Both the position numbers and the translations under genes were made by a program. The notes under the pieces were generated by a model. It searched no databases, had not been told where the DNA came from, and worked only from the letters and a program-made list of their open reading frames with translations. Positions 3,580-48,316 of a DNA stretch of 64,000 bases are shown one piece after another. The number at the start of each line of letters is the position of its first letter. Within the stretch, counting starts at the first letter, position 1. Origin of the DNA: a bacterium (GTDB taxonomy: Bacteria > Patescibacteriota > CPR2 > UBA1875 > JAJYID01); contig JAUSJO010000002.1 in the NCBI GenBank assembly GCA_030647205.1, positions 177,112 through 241,111 of the forward strand, read 5' to 3'.

Positions 3580-4772
3580 GGATTTTAATCGCTAACGAAA
3601 CATATCCCCCTAATCTCAATGGATGCGCGGTTTTTACTCAACGTTTAGCACAAAACTTAGCAAAAAGAGGTCATGAAGTTGCTGTTGTCGCTCCTGGTCT
3701 AAAGTTTGGCGATTATTTAGAAAAAGATCAATACGGCGTCAATGTTTACGGGTTGCGCTCAATCTCTGTAAAAATGATTCATCCTAATTATAGGATTGTG
3801 ACTAAAGTGGATATTACTAAATCTGTTAGAAAGATAATAGCCAAATTCCAGCCAGACATAATCCACATACAAAATCATTTTCTAGTTGGCAGATCTTGTC
3901 TGAAGATTGCCAAAAAACAAGGGATTGCAATAGTAGGTACTAACCATTTTATGCCCGAAAATTATCTTCAATTTGCACCCAAGGCTACGGAAGGAACAAT
4001 GGCTAAAGTTTTATGGGCTGATTTCTTTAAGGTTTATAACCAGCTTGATTGTGTTACCGCTCCATCGCGCGCAGCCGTTCAGATGCTATACGATGTAGGG
4101 TATAAGAAAAAGGCAGAAGTTGTTTCAAATGGCATGGAGTTTGATAAATTCAAAAAAAGACCAACAAGCGGGAAACTTTTAAAAAAGTATAAACTAGATC
4201 AGGATATACCTACATTTATCTCTGTTGGAAGGATTGAAAAAGATAAAAATTTAGATGTGATACTCGGAGCCTTTGCTCTTTATCTTGAAAAGAATGATGG
4301 GCAGTTAATACTTGTCGGTAATGGGAAGCTTGAAAAAGATCTAAAGAAGCTGTCTGTGGCTTTAGGTGTTAAGGAGAAAGTTGTTTTTACTGGTAAAATT
4401 ACCGTTGATGAAGTATTTGAAGTTTATTCTTTGGCAGATGTATATATTGGGGCCGGAACGGCAGAGCTTCAGGGACTATCGGTGATGGAGGCAATGGCGT
4501 CGGGACTTCCTATACTTGTGGTAAATGCCGTTGCGCTTCCCGAACTTGTTAAGGATGGGGCAAATGGATATCTTTTCGAACTTAGTGTAGCGGATTTAGC
4601 AGAAAAAATGGGGGAAATCTTAGAGGATAAGGTAAAAATCAAGGAAATGGGCGCAAAAAGTTTGGAGATTATCGGTGCACACGATATGGCTAATACGATT
4701 GGCAAGTTTGAGAGGATTTACGAAAAGGTTATTAAAGAAAAGAAAAAATCTTATCCAAACTCAAGGAAGTAA
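3561..4772 (+). CDS. Glycosyltransferase family 4 (GT-B fold)
   Basis: N-terminal RILIANETYPPNLNGCAVFTQRLAQNLAKRGHEV and C-terminal EAMASGLPILV...DG.NGYL motifs typical of GT4. Confidence 0.7.
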   Translation: MEEKKIRILIANETYPPNLNGCAVFTQRLAQNLAKRGHEVAVVAPGLKFGDYLEKDQYGVNVYGLRSISVKMIHPNYRIVTKVDITKSVRKIIAKFQPDIIHIQNHFLVGRSCLKIAKKQGIAIVGTNHFMPENYLQFAPKATEGTMAKVLWADFFKVYNQLDCVTAPSRAAVQMLYDVGYKKKAEVVSNGMEFDKFKKRPTSGKLLKKYKLDQDIPTFISVGRIEKDKNLDVILGAFALYLEKNDGQLILVGNGKLEKDLKKLSVALGVKEKVVFTGKITVDEVFEVYSLADVYIGAGTAELQGLSVMEAMASGLPILVVNAVALPELVKDGANGYLFELSVADLAEKMGEILEDKVKIKEMGAKSLEIIGAHDMANTIGKFERIYEKVIKEKKKSYPNSRK

Positions 4773-8095: not shown

Positions 8096-10057
8096 ATGTC
8101 AGATAAAGAACCACTGCTAATAGTTAAGAACATCAAAAAAAGATTCCTTGTTGGTAAAAGGGAAGTAAATGTTTTAAAGGGGGTTAATCTTGAGATAGAT
8201 CCCGGTGATTTTATTATAATAATCGGTCCATCAGGAAGCGGGAAAACCACACTTTTAAATACGATATTAGGACTTGAAAAACCCGATGAGGGGGAAATCA
8301 TTATCTCCGGTAAAAATATTTATAGTATGGATGAAGATAAAAGAGCTTATTTCAGGCGGGAAAAATTTGGTGTTGTTTATCAGCAATCGAACTGGATTAA
8401 ATCTCTAAATGTGATAGATAATGTTGCTTTTCCTCTGTCTATATCGGGTTTATCGCCCAAGACGATTAGGCGTAAAGCAAAAGAGATACTTTATCTTTTC
8501 AATTTTGATAAGTTTTCAAAGTATAGGCCGTCAGAACTTTCAGGGGGAGAACAGCAAAAACTTTCTGTTTGTCGAGCGCTTATTTCTGATCCACCCATAA
8601 TTTTAGCTGATGAGCCAACCGGCAATCTTGATTCTATCACAGCGGATGATTTGATGTATGACCTAAGGACCCTCAATGTTGAATCTAAAAAAACTATGAT
8701 TATGGTAACTCATAACCCTGATTATGAGAGATATGCTACAAAATTTGTTTGTATGGAAGATGGGGTTATCAAGAGTGTCAAAGTAAAAAGAAAAAATCTT
8801 TTGCAGACAGAGAAATCGATCAAAAAAACGGTTAACATATCTAAATATAGTTTTTGGATGAAGCTATGGTTTCTTTTAAAGTTATCTTTTAAAAATTTCA
8901 AAAAAAACAAAATGAGAACTCTTCTGACGTCAGGTGGCGTAGCCCTAAGTATTGGTTTTATTGCTTTTTTAGTTTCGCTTAGCTATGGTTTTCAAAATCT
9001 TTCTACGGAGGGGATCAAGAAAATGGAAGCGTTTCAGATGCTAGATGTTGATACGGGAAAATCGAAAATAGCCAATATAGATGATGAAGCTATTAAAAAA
9101 ATCTCAAACATTTTTGGGGTTGAGAAGGTGTATCCTTCAGTAAGTGTCGCCGGCGATTTCACTTTTCATGATAAAAAAATAAATGGGATTATATATGGTA
9201 GAGATATCGAAACCTTGAAAATAGAGAGGCCGAGAATCGTTGCGGGGGAGTCGTTTTCTTCAGATACATCCGAAGAAGTTATCCTAAATATAGTGCTAGC
9301 CAAGAAATTGGGGATGAGTAGTCCTGGCTCAATTGTTGGACAGAACATTGAAGTGAATACGATTATTCGTCCGGAGCTTCTAGAAAATGGCGGGGAAAAC
9401 TTCAAGTCTGATAATAGGCAATACAAAATAGTGGGACTAGTCGAAGAGGGTAACGCTCCGTATGTTTATACTCCTTTGGGGAGTTTGAAAAAAATGGGGA
9501 TTGTCAACTATAGCGAAGCAAAGGTTAAAACAACGACTCCGGACAATATAGATAGGATTAAGTCCCTCATAGAGCGCATGGGTTTCAAGGCAAGCTCAAT
9601 AAAGGATACGGTCGATCAGGCAAATCAGTTTTTTGGTATATTTAGAATGATTTTAGTCGTCTTTGGTATCATTGCAATTGCTGTTTCTTGCGTTGGGATG
9701 TTCAATACTTTGACCATTTCCCTAATCGAAAAAACTCGGGAGATAGGTGTCATGAAATCTATGGGGGCAACAAAGAAAGATGTGAGAAATATTTTTATTC
9801 TTGAAGCTTTATTTGTTGGTGTTATAGGGGGCTTATCGGGGGTGGCTCTTAGCTATCTTTTGGGAGAATTCTTTAATACCAGTATATATGCCCTAGCAAG
9901 ATCAACAGGTAATGAACCGGTTAAAATATTCATCTTTCCGCCGAATCTGCTGATATTCTCAGTGCTTCTGTCTTTGCTAATCAGTATTCTCACGGGTATT
10001 TATCCCGCAAGAAGGGCCTCAAAGATTAGCGCACTGGATGCTCTAAGGTATGAGTAG
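8096..10057 (+). CDS. MacB-like fused ABC ATPase + FtsX-family permease (single 653-aa ORF)
   Basis: Walker [10 protein letters not shown], signature [15 protein letters not shown], Walker [12 protein letters not shown], then in-frame FtsX permease ([16 protein letters not shown]..., 4 TM with large extracytoplasmic loop); paralogous to split pair 15764/16532. Confidence 0.8.
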
Positions 10058-10939: not shown

Positions 10940-13900
10940 ATGAGAGTGAAATCTCTTAAGTTTTTACGTAGTTTGAGGTTTCATACTACTTTTGCTTTGC
11001 ATTTAAAAGCCCACAAAAATAGCTGGTACAAAGAGTGGCACCAGTGGCGTTTTCATCATCATTTCCATGCGGCAATGTTTGTTTTTTATACTGTAAGTGT
11101 TCTTTTGGGATCTTTTGCAACACTGCTTCCGAACGCCAACAATAAAGCATTGGCAGCAGCCCTGAACTATGATCAAACTTTTGATACCGGAACCGGACTG
11201 ACATACGATAGCAGTAAAATAAATATCCCCGGTGATGGTTTGGCTACCTTAAAATCCCATACGCCAGGCAGTGACTGGATAGCGACAGATAATGATGGTG
11301 GATACAACTGGAGTTATAGGAAGGCTATCACTATCACAAATCCGAATGCCACGAATGACTTTCAGGTCCAGCTGACTGGTATAGATACGGTTTTGGGCGG
11401 GAAAGTGCAAGCTAATTGCTCCGACATGCGTTTTACCTCTGATAATGGTGTGACTGTTATACCACATTGGGTTGAGTCCACAAGTTGCCCATCTGCCTCT
11501 ACTACGATATGGGTAAAGGTGCCTGCCACGAAGACAACCATATACATGTATTATGGAAATTCAAAACCAGAGTGGATGGCAAGAGAAACTAATCGCACTT
11601 GGCGTGGTGTGGCATCTTCCTCAGACGGCACCAAACTGGCAGCAGTAGTCAATGGCGGTCAAATATATACTTCAACTGACTCCGGCGCCACCTGGACCCC
11701 AAGAGATTCTAGCCGTGCCTGGTGGAACATCACCTCTTCTTCAGATGGCACCAAACTGGCAGCAACAGTCAACAACGGCCAAATATATACTTCAACTGAC
11801 TCCGGCGCCACATGGACTCCGAGAGAGTCTAGTCGTGGTTGGGACGCAATGTCTTCCTCCTCAGATGGCACCAAGCTGGCAGCAGCAGTTTGGGGTGGTC
11901 AAATATATATTTCAACTGACTCCGGCGCCACTTGGGCAGCCAGAGCTTCTAGTCAAAACTGGGCCAGTGTTAGTCTCTCTTCAGACGGCACAAAAATAGT
12001 GGCAACAGCGGATAGTAGCCAAATCTACACAACGACTATACCCAGTAGTGATACGGCGGTATTTGAGGATGTTATTAGTAATGTGCAGGGTGCCTGGGAA
12101 ATGGGTGATAATCCAGGGGGTGCGGGCGTGGATTCATCTGGTAATAACCTTACAAGCACACTGAACGGTACAGCTGAAGTCAGCGATAGGAATAGTAGAA
12201 CCGCCAAAGCTCGCAACTATGCTGCCGGTGGTGATGGTGTAGATAATATAACAGTAAGTGACAATACTGTTATAAGGCCAACACCAGGAACTGTGATTAC
12301 CCTTTCAGTTTGGGCCCGATCTGGTGATAACACCGACACTTCTTATATTATAAAGAAAAAAGAAACTTATTCTCTAAGGATTCTTGCAGATGGGACGATA
12401 AATACCAATTTCTTTATTGCTAGTGCGTGGAGGACGTGCTCAAGTGCAGTTGGTGCCTTCCCAGAAACCAACACATGGACTCATCTAGCTGTAACCTATG
12501 ACACTGTGGGTGGCTCATATAAGATCTACAAAAATGGAACAGAGGTTGCCTCCTGTCCAGCTCAAACAGGCGATATCTCGTCCGTGACTAACACGGAATT
12601 GCTACTGGGTACCTATAACTTTGTTAATAATGACTGGAATGGTGATCTGGATGATATAAGGGTTTACAACAAGGTTTTGCCTGTTGCAGATATGCAGAAG
12701 CTTGCAGTGACCTCAAATATAAGTGAGTTCAGTACCGCGCATCCAAATATGGAATATGTCAAGAAGTATACCGCCGGTCTAAGCGTCGGCGCACCAAGCA
12801 GTGAAGAGGGGATTGTCTATAATGACAACCCCAGTATAGGTAATACAGCAGCGATAAACATGAGTAAGCTCGTGGGCTTTACGGGGACGGCCGGCGGTGG
12901 CTCGACCGGCACTTTCGAATATCAGTTATCACCGGACAATGGGGCTCATTGGTATGAATGGTTTGAAGGTGATGATTGGTATGAAGTGACAGGATCAACT
13001 AGTACTATTGACCAAGCCGCTGTTGATCAGTTTAACGAGAGGTTTGCCACGCCCGACACAGCTGGTTATATACAGTTCAAGTGGAGAGCCGTTTTAATTT
13101 CTAATGGGACGCTTAGCCAGATACCTAAACTCGACGAGGTTACTTTTAGCTATTATTATGATACGGCGGATCCGGACAATGTAGTCCAGTCTGATGCTTC
13201 ATATGGAGGTAACTCACTAAATCAAGCGAGTTATTATAACTACATCCAGCCTATATTTGACTGGTCTTCATATGCTCCACTTGATAATAATAGTGGAGGA
13301 GGAGAGTCAAACTCCGGCATAGACGGCTACTATGTTTTATTCTGTAGTACCGCATTGAACAACGACACTGACTGTAATCCGGCAACTAATGGATATTCCA
13401 CTTACACAACAGGTACGACATATACTGCGCCTGACATGACAGGATGGACAAGTGATAACTATTATCTAAGAATAAAAACCAAAGATAAGGCTGGAAACAT
13501 ATCTGATACCACCTCAGTTCCCTTCGTTTATCATTTTGACGTTAATAAACCTACTAATCCCCCAACGCTTACTAGAACTCCATATGCTCCGACAGATGTA
13601 CAAAACAACTTCCGTTTTGACTGGTCGGGAGCAACAGATCCTGACCCAGACGGAGCGGGGTCACTTGAAGCTTCGGGGATAGCCAAGTATCAATGGCGAA
13701 GAGCAATCGATGATCCTGTAACCGGCTGGACAGACACTGTTAATACCTATGCTACAGGTGTCTCTGCCTATCAAATTGGTGAAAACTTGTTCTATGTCAG
13801 GACAGTTGATAATGCTGGGAATGTTGCGGATGGCTATAGCCAGATCAGATATCTCTGGTCCGGAAATGCTCCGCCGGCTCCGACAAATCTCGAAGTAGTC

Positions 13901-22262: not shown

Positions 22263-22337
22263 GCGGGTATTGTATAATGGCTATTATGTCACCCTTCCAA
22301 GGTGAAGATGCGGGTTCGATCCCCGCTACCCGCTCCA
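22263..22337 (+). tRNA. tRNA-Gly (anticodon TCC)
   Basis: acceptor GCGGGTA/TACCCGC, anticodon stem TCACC/GGTGA loop CTTCCAA, T-loop TTCGATC, CCA encoded; promoter GGTATAAT at ~22244. Confidence 0.7.
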
Positions 22338-22340
22338 TAA

Positions 22341-22418
22341 GCGCCCTTAGCTCAGTTGGATTAGAGCGTCTGGTTTCGGCCCAGAAGGCCGCAGGTTCGA
22401 GTCCTGCAGGGCGCACCA
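22341..22418 (+). tRNA. tRNA-Arg (anticodon TCG)
   Basis: GCGCCCTTAGCTCAGTTGGATTAGAGC..., anticodon loop TTTCGGC, T-loop TTCGAGT, CCA encoded. Confidence 0.8.
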
Positions 22419-22427
22419 AAATATCGT

Positions 22428-22505
22428 GGTGGCTGTAGCTCAGTTGGTTAGAGCATCGGTTTGTGGTACCGAGGGTCGTGGGTTCGAATCCCATCAGCCA
22501 CCCCA
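22428..22505 (+). tRNA. tRNA-His (anticodon GTG) with extra 5' G(-1)
   Basis: G-1 + GTGGCTG acceptor pairing CAGCCAC, anticodon loop TTGTGGT, T-loop TTCGAAT, CCA encoded. Confidence 0.8.
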
Positions 22506-27312: not shown

Positions 27313-27395
27313 AAGCCTAAACTCGCTTGAGTCATAGGGGAGCCCAACATTAAAAAATAGAGTTTTTAATTTTGGGTAAAAAACACTTGACAAAG

Positions 27396-27430
27396 AGTAT
27401 ACGTATATTTATACTTATACCAGTACTATT
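27396..27430 (+). promoter_or_regulatory. Sigma70-like promoter TTGACA-N18-TATACT with AAGGAG RBS before 27447
   Basis: read directly. Confidence 0.5.
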
Positions 27431-27446
27431 AAAAAAGGAGAAGACC

Positions 27447-27956
27447 ATGGGTAATAAAACAATCTATGTGAAAGGCAGTGACGAAAACGTCTATAAAGAG
27501 GCACAAAAGATTGCAGGTGAAGCACTATCATCTGTCATCTCAAAGGCGCTCAGGGAGTTTGTCGACCGATCTAAGGCACTCAAGGGGGAGATGCGTGAGA
27601 TCAGCGTCAATGTTGGCTCAAAAGATGCTATGCGTGAGCAAAAGTTTATCGGTAACCAGATTGGCAAGTGGAGAGGTTTTTCTAAGGACAAGGAGTATTG
27701 GCAAACTGCCAAGGTATATGAAACGCAGAAAGGTAATATAGCCATTTTGCTAACGACTGTCTGTAAGGCGAGCTTGATGACAAATCCGAGAGATTGGAAG
27801 AAAAACCATGAATATTACAAAGATGTTGCTAACTCAGAACTACTCACAGCAAAAAAGCCAAAAGAGTTTAAGGACAAGATACCTGAAGATCTTTTGAAAA
27901 AGATAGAGGACTTGCTAAAAAAGGAAGAAAATAAAGTCGAATATTTGGACATCTAG
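27447..27956 (+). CDS. EXLDI-family protein (ends ...VEYLDI)
   Basis: C-terminal E-x-L-D-I motif characteristic of TIGR04342-type family (recalled); start moved to MGNKTIY after RBS. Confidence 0.45.
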   Translation: MGNKTIYVKGSDENVYKEAQKIAGEALSSVISKALREFVDRSKALKGEMREISVNVGSKDAMREQKFIGNQIGKWRGFSKDKEYWQTAKVYETQKGNIAILLTTVCKASLMTNPRDWKKNHEYYKDVANSELLTAKKPKEFKDKIPEDLLKKIEDLLKKEENKVEYLDI

Positions 27957-28031: not shown

Positions 28032-28283
28032 ATGCCAAAAGAAAAATTTGGGTCTGAAAAGGTTATTAAAATCAAAAAAGACGGACCGTATGTTGTGTGC
28101 GGTAATATTCCTATGGCGAAGCAGACCATCATTACCGATGAAGATGGGGTGTCTGTCCGTTGGGAAAAGGGAGAGGAATATCCGAGGATGGAACAGTATT
28201 CTCTCTGTCGTTGCGGCAACTCAGAAAATAAGCCATTTTGTGACAGTATGCACATACATACCGGATTTAGGGACGATGAATAG
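28032..28283 (+). CDS. CDGSH-type iron-sulfur domain protein (mitoNEET-like, variant CDSMH)
   Basis: CRCGNSENKPFCDSMH matches C-x-C-x2-S-x3-P-x-C-D-G-[SA]-H pattern with one substitution. Confidence 0.55.
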   Translation: MPKEKFGSEKVIKIKKDGPYVVCGNIPMAKQTIITDEDGVSVRWEKGEEYPRMEQYSLCRCGNSENKPFCDSMHIHTGFRDDE

Positions 28284-29609: not shown

Positions 29610-29666
29610 ATTCAACCACATCTATTATTTTGACATAATGATATTTTTAGTTGTTAATATGAAATT

Positions 29667-29696
29667 ATTATTGACAAAATAAAGTGATTATGTTAA
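29667..29696 (+). promoter_or_regulatory. Promoter TTGACA-N17-TAAGAT (AT-rich, host-like) driving the GC-rich island
   Basis: read directly. Confidence 0.4.
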
Positions 29697-29822
29697 GATT
29701 GTATTTGCCATTTTATTTGGCATATTTTTTTGTTCCTTAAAAACTAGAAAAGGAGAAATTATCGACTGAAACCACTGTGTTCAAGTTATTACTAGAGGAA
29801 GGCATAAAACGAGGAGATCCAG

Positions 29823-30074
29823 ATGAACAATCGACAACATGGATTTGTAACTGGGTCTCATCAGGCATCAGAAGGACGCAGGGTCTGGACGGTGCGTGTG
29901 AAAGACCCAAGCAGCAAGTACGATGGGCGCAAGCTTGTCGTTGCTTCAGTTCGCGAAGAACTGGAGTTGGCAAGAGGACTTAATGTCCACTTTGCCATTG
30001 GCAGCGTAGATGACCGTGAAGGGAAAAAAACTCTAAGAGCGGTCGATGTATGCCTTGAAGAAGTAGGCGATTAG
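29823..30074 (+). CDS. Small protein of unknown function, first gene of GC-rich island
   Basis: 83 aa, GAGGAG RBS; markedly GC-rich codons unlike neighbours. Confidence 0.45.
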   Translation: MNNRQHGFVTGSHQASEGRRVWTVRVKDPSSKYDGRKLVVASVREELELARGLNVHFAIGSVDDREGKKTLRAVDVCLEEVGD

Positions 30075-30084
30075 CACTATCGTA

Positions 30085-31611
30085 ATGTCAAATCCGAAAA
30101 GGAGAGCCGAGATGGACAACCAGTCAAAAGTACGGGACATGTTTCAGGAAGCAATGCAGGGTGGGAGCAATCCTCTGAGTGAGGCGTTCGAACAGTTTAT
30201 ATCAACTCTGATGTCGGGTGCCGACGATCATGTCTATGATCCTTCTGTCGAGAGAACTGGTGACAAGGTCATCATTCCCGATGGAGCAAGTATCCCCGAT
30301 GTGATGTCGTCTCTGAGGCGCCAGCATATGATCGAGGAACAGGTCACAAAGATTCATTTTGACCTTCCTGTCTCTCCATGGGACGGTGCTTTGGCGCTGA
30401 CGAAGGCGATCAAGAAGAACATAGGCCCGATTATCCAGAAAGATGGCCTTTTTGGAGCACATCAGATGGATGTCGAGGTCGATCTTGGGAAGACCGTTTC
30501 CGTACCGTGGGGATACTTTGAGATTCCCGGTATGGACGACGCAGAAGTTCAGACTGATTACACGTTCAGAGATGGCCGCGTAGTCTTCCAGTGCAACATC
30601 GAGTGCAAGCGCAAGTATGAGGAGCGGGTTCGCCGGTTGATCGATACTGTTCGTGAGATAGCTGCGAAGGAGAGTCTCCATCGCGGTAAGGCGTTCAGTA
30701 TCGCTTTCCGCGATGAAGATGGAGATCCTATCCGGCTACCGATGCCGAAGTTCTTCGAATTCCTGGATGATGAGCCGATTTTCTCAACCGAGATGGAAGA
30801 GCAGATCGAAAGGAACGTTTTCGTTCCGATTCGGTATGCCGAAGAGATGCGGGAAATGGACGAGTCACTCAAGCGCGGAGTGCTTTTCACCGGTAAATAC
30901 GGTGTGGGCAAGACTCTGCTTGCGAGCCACATTGCTCGTATTGCTACGGCTGAGGGCTGGACGTTCATATATGTCAAGGACTCCAGGGAGCTTCCGGCGG
31001 CGCTTCGGTTCGCCCAGCAGTATCAGCCGGTAGTCGTATACGCTGAGGATGTGGATCGCGTAGCTGGTCCGGAACGTACCGATGATGTGAATGATCTCTT
31101 AAATGAGCTCGATGGTGTTGACTCGAAGTCGGCGGAAATTCTAACGATCCTGACTTCAAATCATCCCGATCATATCAACGCAGCTATGCTGCGTCCCGGA
31201 CGTGTCGATCTGGTGCTGGAAGTTCTGCCTCCTGACGCCGAAACCGTGCAGCGTATGATCATACGCTACTGCGGTGACGCGCTCGAGCAGAATGCTGACC
31301 TAACGGCAGCGTCACAGATCCTCGAGGGAGAGACTCCCGCGCGGGTTCGCGAAGCTATCGGTCGGGCAAAGCTCGAGTCCCTGCGTCGTACGGGAGATCG
31401 GACAGCGAAGATCACCGGTGATGATCTCGAGGCAGTTGCCAACGAGGTCAAGGCTGAGGCCAGCCTTATCCAGTCGAACGCAAAAGGCTCGGGCAAAGAT
31501 CATACTGCTCAGATCGCAGATGGGTTCGCTGATGTGATCAGCGCCGTAAAGGCATCTATGACTGATGGCGGCAACGGCCATGGTAAAAAGGACCAGATCG
31601 CTCGCGTTTAG
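30085..31611 (+). CDS. Classical-clade AAA ATPase with ~250-aa N-terminal domain of unknown function
   Basis: Walker A GKYGVGKT, Walker B VVVYAEDVD, sensor-1/SRH TSNHPDHINAAMLRPGRVDLV (Arg finger). Confidence 0.75.
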   Translation: MSNPKRRAEMDNQSKVRDMFQEAMQGGSNPLSEAFEQFISTLMSGADDHVYDPSVERTGDKVIIPDGASIPDVMSSLRRQHMIEEQVTKIHFDLPVSPWDGALALTKAIKKNIGPIIQKDGLFGAHQMDVEVDLGKTVSVPWGYFEIPGMDDAEVQTDYTFRDGRVVFQCNIECKRKYEERVRRLIDTVREIAAKESLHRGKAFSIAFRDEDGDPIRLPMPKFFEFLDDEPIFSTEMEEQIERNVFVPIRYAEEMREMDESLKRGVLFTGKYGVGKTLLASHIARIATAEGWTFIYVKDSRELPAALRFAQQYQPVVVYAEDVDRVAGPERTDDVNDLLNELDGVDSKSAEILTILTSNHPDHINAAMLRPGRVDLVLEVLPPDAETVQRMIIRYCGDALEQNADLTAASQILEGETPARVREAIGRAKLESLRRTGDRTAKITGDDLEAVANEVKAEASLIQSNAKGSGKDHTAQIADGFADVISAVKASMTDGGNGHGKKDQIARV

Positions 31612-31640
31612 GCGATTCTCTCGATCTAGTTACAAGTCCC

Positions 31641-31692
31641 CCGCTGACGTTAAGTCGGCGGGGGATATTTTTTATTTTTTTCTGTTATCGGA
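31641..31692 (+). terminator. Strong rho-independent terminator ending GC-rich island
   Basis: CCCCCGCTGACGTTAAGTCGGCGGGGG + long T-run. Confidence 0.75.
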
Positions 31693-31800: not shown

Positions 31801-31992
31801 TTATTTTTTATCTTTGACTTTGAAGTCACAGCACGACCAAGAGTGCATCGATCTTCTTTTAACTAATATAGAGATGCCGAACGCGATAAGCAGTAGCGGC
31901 CAGAAAATACTCCAGAAGTCCCCCGGAAGATAGCCGAGATTTTGTAGTAGCCATGCAATGCCGGCGACAATTATCATACTTGCAAATATCAT
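31801..31992 (-). CDS. Small 2-TM membrane protein
   Basis: ORF with hydrophobic helices; RBS-like GGAGTAAAAAATG. Confidence 0.35.
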   Translation of the reverse strand: MIFASMIIVAGIAWLLQNLGYLPGDFWSIFWPLLLIAFGISILVKRRSMHSWSCCDFKVKDKK

Positions 31993-32129: not shown

Positions 32130-32205
32130 GCCCTGGTAGCTCAATGGATAGAGCAACAGCCTTCTAAGCTGTAGGTTACTGGTTCGAGTCCAGTCCAGGG
32201 CACCA
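32130..32205 (+). tRNA. tRNA-Arg (anticodon TCT)
   Basis: acceptor GCCCTGG/CCAGGGC, anticodon loop CTTCTAA, T-loop TTCGAGT, CCA encoded. Confidence 0.85.
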
Positions 32206-32221
32206 GAGAAATTTAATATGC

Positions 32222-32297
32222 GGGTTGCTAGCTCAATCGGTAGAGCAACTGCCTCTTAAGCAGTAGGTTCTGGGTTCAAGTCCCAGGCAACCCACCA
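32222..32297 (+). tRNA. tRNA-Lys (anticodon CTT)
   Basis: acceptor GGGTTGC/GCAACCC, anticodon loop CTCTTAA, T-loop TTCAAGT, CCA encoded. Confidence 0.85.
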
Positions 32298-46932: not shown

Positions 46933-47562
46933 ATGAAACACGGTAACAAAATGTATAGCTTTAAGATCTGCGAAAACGAGGTTGAAAGGATAGCCTCACG
47001 AGAGCTCAGATTTGAGGTGTTTTGTGTGGAAAAGGGTTGGATAGACCCAAGTCAATTTCCAAACAGTCAGGAATTCGACGAATTCGATGATTATGCAAAG
47101 CACATCATTGCTCTAAATGAAAAAGGCGATGTTATCGGCACTGCCCGTGTGATAATGCCGTCCGCCGCAGGACTTCCGATAGAAAAACTGCTTTTGGAGG
47201 ATCAGCTTGATCCCAGTGAGACAGTGGAAGTTTCAAGGCTTGCAGTCCGCGAGGATGCTAGGGGCAACGAGTCAGTTGTGTTTTTCGGCGTAACACGACT
47301 GATGTGGAAGTACGTATCGACTCAGCCTATCAACTACTGGGCTGCATCTGTCGATGTACCTCTCTACAATCGTCTTGAGAGGCTGGGAATGCCATTTATT
47401 GAAGTGGCAGAACCAACATTCTACGTCGGATCGGAATCGGTGCCATTTGTGGCCGACTTTCACAAGACCGAAGATGTCCTCTTCGGTGCCTTTGTAAATC
47501 GCGTTATGTCAAGGATGGGAGGTGGTCAAGATGATACCTTACGAAGCGCTAACAGCGCGTAA
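46933..47562 (+). CDS. GNAT-fold N-acyl amino acid synthase / autoinducer-synthase-like acyltransferase
   Basis: ELRFEVFCVEKGW motif characteristic of LuxI-like/N-acyl amino acid synthase GNATs. Confidence 0.5.
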   Translation: MKHGNKMYSFKICENEVERIASRELRFEVFCVEKGWIDPSQFPNSQEFDEFDDYAKHIIALNEKGDVIGTARVIMPSAAGLPIEKLLLEDQLDPSETVEVSRLAVREDARGNESVVFFGVTRLMWKYVSTQPINYWAASVDVPLYNRLERLGMPFIEVAEPTFYVGSESVPFVADFHKTEDVLFGAFVNRVMSRMGGGQDDTLRSANSA

Positions 47563-48316
47563 TGCGGGTATTATCCAGGACCAGGAGTGCTTGAAAAGGG
47601 CCACAGTGGCGATAGCCGGCTGTGGCGGCGCTGGTGGTAAATCTCCAGCGACATTCGCAAGGATGGGGGTTGGCAAGATAAGGTTAGCCGACCCGGATAC
47701 ATTTGATGTCTCAAACCTTAACCGGCAATATGGATCCAGTGTCCGCACGTTGGGTCAAAACAAGGCCCAGGCCATCGCTGATCTGGTGAAGGATATCAAT
47801 CCACATTGCGAAGTTGAAGTCTTCGAGGAGGGTATCACCGAAGACAACATCGCTTCGTTTCTCCAAGGAGTAGATGTGGCCATAGAGGAGATTGATATCC
47901 AGGCCGCTTACTTCTCAGTGATTTTCCATCGTACTGCAAGGGCAATGGGAATCCCTGTCTTAACCGGCGTTGAAGTTGGTTGGGGCGCAAACCTCTTCTA
48001 CTTCGATCCCGAGGGGATGACCTTCGAGGAGTACGTTGGGATTCCTGACGGCGCAAGCAAGGAAGAGATCGAGAAGCATCCTATCCCGATCACTGCGTAT
48101 AGTCCGGAGATACCGGAGTATGTGACCGAGGATATTCTCGGCATGATCATGAGCGGCGAGATCGAAATACCGGCGATAGCGCCATCAGCGAACTTAACCG
48201 CAGCAATGATTGCGGTGTACACATACCTTCTGCTCAGTGGAGCCAAGAAGGTAGAACCGGTGCCTTACTACTATCCTGTCGACATATTTAATGTGGAGGC
48301 AAGAAGAGTAGTGTAG
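47522..48316 (+). CDS. ThiF/MoeB/E1-like adenylyltransferase
   Basis: Rossmann motif VAIAGCGGAGG and RLADPDTFDVSNLNRQ. Confidence 0.75.
   Translation: MVKMIPYEALTARNAGIIQDQECLKRATVAIAGCGGAGGKSPATFARMGVGKIRLADPDTFDVSNLNRQYGSSVRTLGQNKAQAIADLVKDINPHCEVEVFEEGITEDNIASFLQGVDVAIEEIDIQAAYFSVIFHRTARAMGIPVLTGVEVGWGANLFYFDPEGMTFEEYVGIPDGASKEEIEKHPIPITAYSPEIPEYVTEDILGMIMSGEIEIPAIAPSANLTAAMIAVYTYLLLSGAKKVEPVPYYYPVDIFNVEARRVV

Follow-up and report, generated by a model that had tools for sequence, protein, structure and literature searches.

A GC-rich two-gene island of a CPR2 bacterium pairs a Bcs1/YjoB-like AAA ATPase of probable phage ancestry with a small conserved protein

Mitochondrial Bcs1 is a heptameric translocase of the folded Rieske protein. 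To our knowledge, classical AAA ATPases besides FtsH have been little studied in bacteria, and we know of few characterised prokaryotic chaperones of the Bcs1/YjoB "chamber" type. Here we describe a two-gene island in a stretch of 64,000 nucleotides (below, the window) of contig JAUSJO010000002.1 from a bacterium of the CPR2 lineage of Patescibacteriota, one of the candidate phyla radiation (CPR) bacteria. The island is filled by two open reading frames (ORFs) on the same strand, the first (29823-30074) coding for 83 aa and the second (30085-31611) for a AAA ATPase of at most 508 aa. The explanation that we favour, with a little better than even confidence, is that of a horizontally acquired, phage-derived accessory operon, now stably resident in its host, which consists of a Bcs1/YjoB-like ring ATPase and a small cofactor. 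The island would have come from a phage by horizontal transfer and would be expressed from its own promoter and terminator. The product of the second gene would be a soluble, ring-forming ATPase of the classical clade, acting as an ATP-driven chamber-type chaperone or complex remodeller of folded clients and not as a threading unfoldase, and the small beta-rich protein would physically interact with it as an adaptor, a regulator or a dedicated client.

Both genes had been read from the sequence in an earlier note on this DNA and were found where the note placed them, with the start of the second one probably lying further downstream. The ATG at 30112, which gives a product of 499 aa, is likely the true start because it follows, at a distance of 7 nt, the Shine-Dalgarno sequence AAGGAG (30099-30104) and because the equivalent methionine is the one called in L003 and L111 (labels L001-L115 denote the loci or contigs with homologues that were compared). 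In an exact-protein look-up the 499-aa form was on record while the 508-aa form was absent. The sole Pfam module of the protein is PF00004 (E 4.5e-15, cut-off 21.2 bits), which covers residues 266-379. The motifs that the note had listed were all recovered on the forward strand: Walker A GKYGVGKT at 30892-30915, Walker B VVVYAEDVD at 31030-31056 and, for the arginine finger region, the second region of homology MLRPGRVD at 31186-31209. Among 40 homologues G270, G273, G275, K276 and T277 of Walker A, E321 and D322 of Walker B, the sensor-1 residue N359 and the arginine fingers R370 and R373 are invariant. With Walker A, the acidic pair of Walker B, the sensor-1 asparagine and the two arginines of the second region of homology, the protein belongs to the classical AAA clade. 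The invariance of Walker A, of sensor 1 and of the two arginine fingers leads one to expect an active, oligomeric ATPase.

The same note had called this ATPase an orphan, which is at odds with the 1536 homologues that we found in a large protein database. The protein is a full-length member of the PHROGs family phrog_10440 (E 4.7e-110, 369 bits, residues 45-475 against positions 7-448 of the 483 in the profile), to which no function has been assigned. A tblastn search detected 93 phage records with 34-39% identity over 80-92% of the ATPase length, among them Schitoviridae (Littlefix, Pylas, Pollock, FSL SP-058/076), KPP25-like Pseudomonas phages and Delftia phage phiW-14, and more distant matches in phages of Gordonia, Mycobacterium, Listeria and Erwinia. 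The homologues of Littlefix and phiW-14 are situated among early/replication genes. The closest homologues (44-94% identity) all come from Patescibacteria metagenome-assembled genomes (MAGs), namely Moraniibacteriota, Adlerbacteria, Peribacteria, Paceibacteria and bins labelled "Saccharibacteria"; copies in proteobacterial genomes are 32-38% identical and copies on IMG/VR viral contigs up to 52% identical. We found nothing relevant in the literature on Bcs1-like phage ATPases or on AAA ATPases of CPR bacteria, and the wide capture of this phage family by CPR bacteria appears to be undescribed. Long antisense ORFs inside GC-rich homologues of the ATPase gene were also considered and were dismissed as the usual artefact of high GC content at third codon positions (GC3).

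According to a study of YjoB (PMC9565160), Walker B of Bcs1 and of YjoB carries "ED" in place of the "DE" that is usual in classical AAA proteins, which makes these two an exception. The window ATPase shares this feature: its ED, which aligns to the IDE of Cdc48, is also present in Littlefix gp69 and in phiW-14 gp235. The AlphaFold2 model of the ATPase (predicted local distance difference test, pLDDT, 85) contains a family-specific N-terminal alpha/beta domain at approximately residues 45-235 (30217-30789, forward strand, pLDDT about 80-95). When this model was compared by Foldseek with PDB structures, the alignments that include the N-domain extended over 398-496 columns to mitochondrial Bcs1 and over 443 columns to Bacillus subtilis YjoB (7w42, template modelling (TM) scores 0.44/0.53), and the matches confined to the AAA part were proteasomal Rpt subunits, p97 and NVL. 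In a comparison with viral models, giant-virus proteins annotated as "mitochondrial chaperone BCS1" and phage AAA ATPases matched best, with 430-500 columns. In the model the strand of residues 293-297 is followed, after two residues, by the helix 300-313, and in alignments the family is 8-14 residues shorter at the place where Cdc48 D1/D2 and the ATPase of L107 (RFVG) carry their pore loop. Neither the model nor the alignments thus contain the aromatic-hydrophobic-glycine pore-loop 1 of threading unfoldases in the window ATPase. Residues 1-45 are polar and amphipathic, with no hydrophobic stretch. The assignment of phrog_10440 to a Bcs1/YjoB-like, pore-loop-less architecture appears to be new.

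The 83-aa protein is conserved and real. It has 37 close homologues with 52-95% identity, all from CPR-type metagenomes, and their alignment holds 18 invariant columns in the conserved core GFV.G...VWKVRVKD...KLVVASV..GLELARGLNVHFAIGT.DD..G.K.LRAVDV. The ORF can be taken as a genuine gene because its ratio of nonsynonymous to synonymous divergence (dN/dS) relative to L003 is 0.19. No match to it was found in Pfam, PHROGs, PADLOC, NCBIfam, PDB or phage genomes (50,697 phage records). Foldseek with its five-stranded AlphaFold2 model returned sub-threshold matches only (best E 0.15), most of them OB-fold proteins (EutN/CcmL, Teb1, S28e, SSB and the proteasomal Rpt OB domain), so a model-based reading of the protein as an OB-like barrel is possible. 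Of the searches that the earlier note had suggested for the N-terminal part of the ATPase and for its small neighbour, the structural one gave the long alignments to Bcs1 and YjoB, and the sequence of neither the small protein nor the N-domain had a credible match in Pfam or PDB. A hidden Markov model (HMM) search of 1.84 billion protein representatives detected 149 relatives of the small protein, including forms of about 190 aa and of 360-470 aa that carry the domain at their N-terminus, followed by fused extensions that are unannotated or membrane-anchored. The matches P0217, P0241 and P0283 of this HMM were discarded as repeat or low-complexity artefacts (giant proteins with multiple fn3 or Ig repeats). 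Homologues of 96-98 aa end in a conserved C-terminal "(K/N)RS-GGQS" tail, superficially like the GGQ end of Pup; the window protein, which ends in ...CLEEVGD, is without it.

The strongest argument for a joint action of the small protein and an ATPase is its association with two unrelated AAA chassis. At all ten of the distinct loci where a stand-alone small gene was examined, it lies directly upstream of a classical AAA gene. In the window (L111 has the same sequence), L003, L006, L012 and L014 this is the Bcs1-like ATPase, and in L107, L108, L110, L113 and L114/115 it is an ARC/Cdc48-like ATPase of 518-651 aa that has a coiled coil at its N-terminus, DE in Walker B and FVG in the pore loop. 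The PDB matches of this second ATPase are Mpa/ARC and Cdc48, and in the AAA core it is only 27-28% identical to the window ATPase. The ARC/Cdc48-like ATPase belongs to a CPR operon with the order cl31 (about 140 aa), small gene, AAA, a gene for about 60 aa and a DUF1360 membrane protein (L107 5579-8620, L108 5338-8667, L113 4001-6673, L114 3573-6904, L115 1982-5313); L113 lacks cl31 and L110 is a more divergent form. These operons form GC-rich blocks among housekeeping genes (for example 0.57 against 0.39 in L114), a PHROGs search of the L107 and L110 regions gave no phage hallmark genes, and cl31 and the protein of about 60 aa are without annotation. The operon is apparently undescribed, as a partner family common to two AAA chassis also appears to be. 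In L006 and L014 cl31 precedes the small gene as well. L013 presents another arrangement, where two divergent cl31-family genes, inverted relative to each other (8750-9262, minus strand; 11647-12174, plus strand), flank a Bcs1-like ATPase gene and the small protein is absent. The similarity rankings of the small and the ATPase genes across loci are incongruent, which fits module shuffling. One could go further and suppose that the small proteins are an undescribed cofactor family (substrate adaptors, gatekeepers or degron-bearing clients) shuffled between the ARC/Cdc48-like unfoldase operon and the phage-type Bcs1-like ATPase, the window being a hybrid module of a new remodelling or protein-targeting system that moves as GC-rich cassettes, with the "RSGGQS" tail as recognition or processing signal; we regard this extension as rather doubtful.

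Several observations weigh against the explanation that we favour. The AAA core is by sequence nearest to Cdc48/p97, no Pfam Bcs1_N match was obtained in the ATPase at E up to 1, the TM-scores from Foldseek are modest, and profile searches with the N-domain against PDB sequences and Pfam found no credible relative. Because of this we use the label "Bcs1/YjoB-like in architecture" and do not call the protein a Bcs1 orthologue. The family to which it belongs is large and uncharacterised. The model of the small protein is poor (pLDDT 58), the distant fused forms of its domain are not linked to AAA genes, and the small gene is absent beside many close homologues of the ATPase, for example in L004/L005 (66% identity), where the ATPase homologue adjoins RNase HII, DeoC and iPGM, and in L010 (64%), which indicates that the small protein is not obligatory for the ATPase. 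Expression of the island, finally, is predicted from its signals.

In the earlier note the island was taken to be recently acquired, and this does not agree with its relation to the closest loci. The L003 glycosyltransferase is 91% identical to that of the window, and both loci share the order GT4, small gene, ATPase and LiaF-TM with about 90% nucleotide identity. Relative to L003, synonymous divergence (dS) and dN/dS are 0.12 and 0.19 for the small gene and 0.25 and 0.12 for the ATPase gene, values of the same order as those of the flanking genes (0.15 and 0.17 for a 194-aa ORF at 27372-27956; 0.64 and 0.07 for GT4). This collinearity and these values indicate that the island predates the split between the window and L003 and has been kept by selection. 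It is under purifying selection and is not very recent. The note had also asked whether the pair is present in related genomes, and its distribution proved patchy: both genes occur in the two closest relatives, L003 and L111, while in 15 metagenomic contigs whose glycosyltransferase is 63-71% identical neither of them lies within 6 kb, synteny being lost there altogether. A search for an empty site, anchored on the glycosyltransferase, accordingly gave no syntenic relative and no clean empty site that would mark the island borders. Across CPR genomes the neighbourhoods of the Bcs1-like ATPase are not conserved, and with strict peptide patterns 33 matches were found among 185,579 species genomes. 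Since synonymous sites are saturated between different loci, these are old, independent copies and not a recently spreading element. One locus has a distinct setting: in L006 (1-6011, a Patescibacteria MAG) the neighbours of a cl31-small-ATPase module include a phage-type integrase, an SNF2-PLD helicase and proteins of the HTH_17 and DUF2726/MTES_1575 families. The GC content of this module is 0.53-0.56, that of several of the neighbours, integrase included, 0.29-0.36 (locus average 0.35). The L006 locus has the appearance of a mobile or defence element that has become integrated.

The jump in base composition between about 29800 and 31620 that the earlier note had estimated by eye was borne out by sliding windows of 200 nt, in which GC is 0.48-0.61 across 29800-31600, 0.25-0.28 in the intergenic DNA upstream of the island and 0.34-0.42 downstream of it, against mostly 0.34-0.46 in the 64 kb as a whole. 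As reference we used the other 41 ORFs of at least 150 aa in the window (GC 0.404±0.038, GC3 0.388±0.060). Foreign composition with GC-ending codons, which the note had ascribed to the whole island, holds for the ATPase gene (GC 0.534, z = 3.4; GC3 0.582, z = 3.2) but not for the small gene, whose GC is 0.496 (z 2.4) and whose GC3 of 0.429 (z 0.7) is inside the host range, its excess of GC being situated at codon position 1. The anomaly is thus carried mainly by the ATPase gene. Comparison of 52 loci (within L001-L075) showed that in 48 the GC3 of the ATPase gene is higher than that of neighbouring ORFs, with an excess of 0.2-0.4 where the CPR host is AT-rich and of about 0.15 in bona fide phages as well; for this reason a part of the "foreign" signal has to be regarded as a trait of the family and not as a sign of recent arrival. 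In the lytic phages Littlefix and phiW-14 the values are 0.73 against 0.57 and 0.85 against 0.70, respectively, and in L049/L050 they are 0.62-0.71 against 0.31-0.36. Expression-linked codon bias or repeated transfer from GC-rich donors are possible causes of the high GC3. The small gene, for its part, has a GC3 of 0.43-0.60 whatever its host (window, L003, L006, L012, L014, L107, L108, L110); in L107 it is 0.60 while all neighbours have 0.75-0.90. This constancy indicates that the gene is compositionally decoupled from both host and partner ATPase. The island is also not the sole oddity of the window. A second GC-discordant gene pair (host background GC3 0.39) is located at 46933-48316 and consists of a GNAT/FeeM-like N-acyl amino-acid synthase gene (GC 0.47, GC3 0.48) that overlaps the next gene, which codes for a ThiF-family E1-like enzyme (GC 0.52, GC3 0.58).

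The signals that delimit the island on the forward strand agree well with those first read from the sequence. Upstream, in AT-rich DNA, lies a sigma-70-like candidate promoter, TTGACA-N17-TAAGAT with a TG extension (29671-29699, 10/12 in a consensus scan), and a second TTGACA is present at 29631-29636. A weak hairpin with a 5-bp stem and a T-run just 3' of the -10 box (29706-29722), picked up by a scan for terminator-like elements, either terminates the glycosyltransferase gene that lies upstream or belongs to the leader. The small gene has the Shine-Dalgarno sequence GAGGAG (29811-29816) 6 nt before its ATG. Downstream of the ATPase gene the scan confirmed a strong intrinsic terminator at 31636-31676, in which a hairpin (31636-31666) with a 13-bp stem, nine G-C pairs and a 5-nt loop is followed by a T-run; because it is identical in L003, it yields no covariation information. 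The promoter/leader stretch 29625-29822 is about 98% identical to L003 5815-6013 (4 differences in about 200 nt), coding DNA being about 90% identical. This high identity, at a synonymous divergence of 0.12-0.64, is not explained by an Rfam match or by folding stability. A structured leader or riboswitch was rejected since the leader has no Rfam match and, over 29704-29830, no unusual folding stability (z = -0.06).

The tRNA genes that the earlier note had seen downstream are indeed present, tRNA-Arg(tct) at 32130-32205, about 0.5 kb from the island, and tRNA-Lys(ctt) at 32222-32297. Their value as a hallmark of an acquired island is another matter, because the unrelated LiaF-TM-like gene (31801-31992, minus strand) lies between the island and the tRNAs, a Pfam scan of ORFs of at least 70 aa over approximately 22.5-40 kb revealed neither an integrase nor phage structural genes, and a search for att-like repeats gave nothing significant. 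The sole candidate for an att site derived from tRNA-Lys, a 16-mer between the ATPase stop and the terminator (31625-31640) that matches the T-arm region of this tRNA (32269-32284) at 13 of 16 positions, was rejected, as about 0.47 such matches are expected per window by chance. The locus therefore lacks both the integrase and the direct repeats of a tRNA 3' end that characterise tRNA-targeted integrative islands. Elsewhere in the window, three tRNA genes form a tight cluster at 22263-22505, Gly(tcc)-Arg(tcg)-His(gtg), with gaps of 3-10 nt.

The window itself is cellular DNA, with genes for RNase Y, a CCA-adding enzyme, ABC/FtsX transporters, histidine kinases and large fn3/laminin-G surface proteins; its RNase Y is 90% identical to a protein of "candidate division WS5 bacterium" and 64-67% to Patescibacteria/CPR2 proteins. 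The flanks of the island are ordinary cellular genes (GDPD, GNAT, HIT, DUF3795, CDGSH, the GT4 glycosyltransferase, the LiaF-TM-like membrane protein, thioredoxin and a response regulator). One of them, the gene at 28032-28283 upstream of the glycosyltransferase, codes for a CDGSH iron-sulfur protein of 83 aa with one CDGSH domain, likewise in L111, while its L003 counterpart (3779-4474) has 231 aa and two such domains.

The facts presented so far could also be accommodated by a vertically inherited housekeeping chaperone, whose composition would result from amino-acid content or high expression. Such an origin would agree with purifying selection and with the unchanged context in close relatives, and in part also with the composition, given that ATPase GC3 is raised in 48 of 52 loci, phages among them, and that the small gene has host-like GC3. 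We nevertheless consider it improbable: the genes are missing beside the glycosyltransferase orthologue of the 15 more distant relatives, contexts across CPR lineages are unrelated and the strict peptide patterns find so few of the species genomes, the GC3 excess in AT-rich hosts reaches 0.2-0.4, and the nearest relatives outside CPR are phage genes. Foreign composition together with a patchy, horizontally spread distribution would suit a function in anti-phage defence or abortive infection, in which the ATPase senses or remodels a phage component, maybe as a domesticated superinfection-exclusion gene, and the small protein serves as sensor or regulator. The phage origin of the family fits exclusion genes, the L006 surroundings (integrase, HTH_17, SNF2-PLD helicase, DUF2726) resemble a mobile or defence island, and PADLOC returned weak similarity to IetA (1e-10) and TRIP13 (2e-9). 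These PADLOC and NCBIfam matches, however, cover the generic AAA core only (IteA reaches 33 bits against a cut-off of 510), neither protein contains a nuclease, protease, TIR, pore or other effector domain, the neighbours in the window, L003, L004, L005, L113 and L114 are housekeeping genes, and the phage homologues look like conserved genes of the early/replication region. A conflict-related role of the pair is possible, but defence as such seems to us unlikely.

The "defence or toxin-type" label of the earlier note fares no better on its second half. If the pair were an addiction module resembling toxin-antitoxin systems, the toxicity would come from the ATPase, and the small protein would serve as antitoxin or autoregulator of the AbrB/MazE kind. 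For this one can cite the small gene coming first, the tight spacing, the dedicated promoter, the mobility and the strongly conserved promoter/leader; a beta-rich protein with a poor monomer model would moreover fit an obligate swapped dimer. Against this, searches at E up to 10 linked neither protein to a family of antitoxins or toxins, many ATPase homologues have no small gene with them, as one would not expect of a toxin, and the phage homologues are solitary genes. We know of no AAA ATPases of this clade that act as toxins, and of all the alternatives we hold this one the least probable. The reading of the island as a domesticated, phage-derived operon of a ring ATPase and its cofactor is in our opinion still to be preferred.

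This locus ties together phrog_10440, a Bcs1/YjoB-like architecture without a threading pore loop, and repeated capture by ultra-small CPR bacteria, and a small protein that accompanies two AAA chassis is a concrete candidate for a cofactor. If the partner is an adaptor or client, it offers a two-component handle on the targets of the phage and CPR ATPases; if it is neither, the locus is a clear but ordinary domesticated phage gene.

Compared with described systems, the island stands apart from the compact modules to which its size and gene content might assign it. IetAS (Gao_Iet) likewise has a classical-type AAA protein in a compact module, and its weak HMM match to the window ATPase (1e-10) is restricted to the AAA core; the NCBIfam IteA score is 33.2 bits (cut-off 510) and no adjacent gene codes for a protease such as the IetS subtilase. 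From the TRIP13-HORMA type of CBASS, to which residues 338-459 only are similar (TRIP13, 2e-9), it differs in that the 83-aa partner has no HORMA match and no cyclase is nearby. It also departs from type II toxin-antitoxin systems, as there is no family match for either protein and close ATPase homologues occur without the small gene. The ARC-type CPR operon has the same small-protein family (52-74% identical across five loci, L110 included) directly upstream of a classical AAA gene, but its ATPase differs in the coiled coil, in the DE of Walker B and in the FVG pore loop, and the window is without the cl31, approximately 60-aa and DUF1360 genes and without the "RSGGQS" tail. This tail and, according to the model, the coiled coil and OB domain of the Pup-proteasome/ARC ATPases are lacking in the window proteins, and none of the modules examined contains a ligase-sized gene that could correspond to PafA/Dop.

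The closest resemblance in architecture and in sequence is to other proteins. Bcs1 and the giant-virus "BCS1" proteins share with the window ATPase the ED Walker B and, as far as Foldseek indicates (398-496 columns), the overall two-domain architecture, while Bcs1 proper has an N-terminal transmembrane anchor and Bcs1_N, neither of which is present in the window protein. YjoB (7W42), a soluble hexameric AAA+ substrate-specific chaperone reported to be restricted to Bacillales (PMC9565160), is likewise soluble and has an N-terminal alpha/beta domain, one classical AAA module and the ED Walker B, but no detectable sequence similarity to the window ATPase in its N-domain. Such similarity is found in the phage ATPases of phrog_10440 (Littlefix gp69, KPP25, Klebsiella phage Pylas, phiW-14 gp235), which have the same N-domain and are homologous to the window ATPase over the full length. 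The phage copies, which are less than 40% identical to it while the CPR copies are 44-94% identical, have no homologue of the 83-aa partner among the 50,697 phage records and in the phage loci examined, whereas the window copy is chromosomal, situated among housekeeping genes and preceded by its partner. Littlefix gp69 and phiW-14 gp235 combine the ED Walker B with the loss of pore-loop 1, as does the ATPase of the window.

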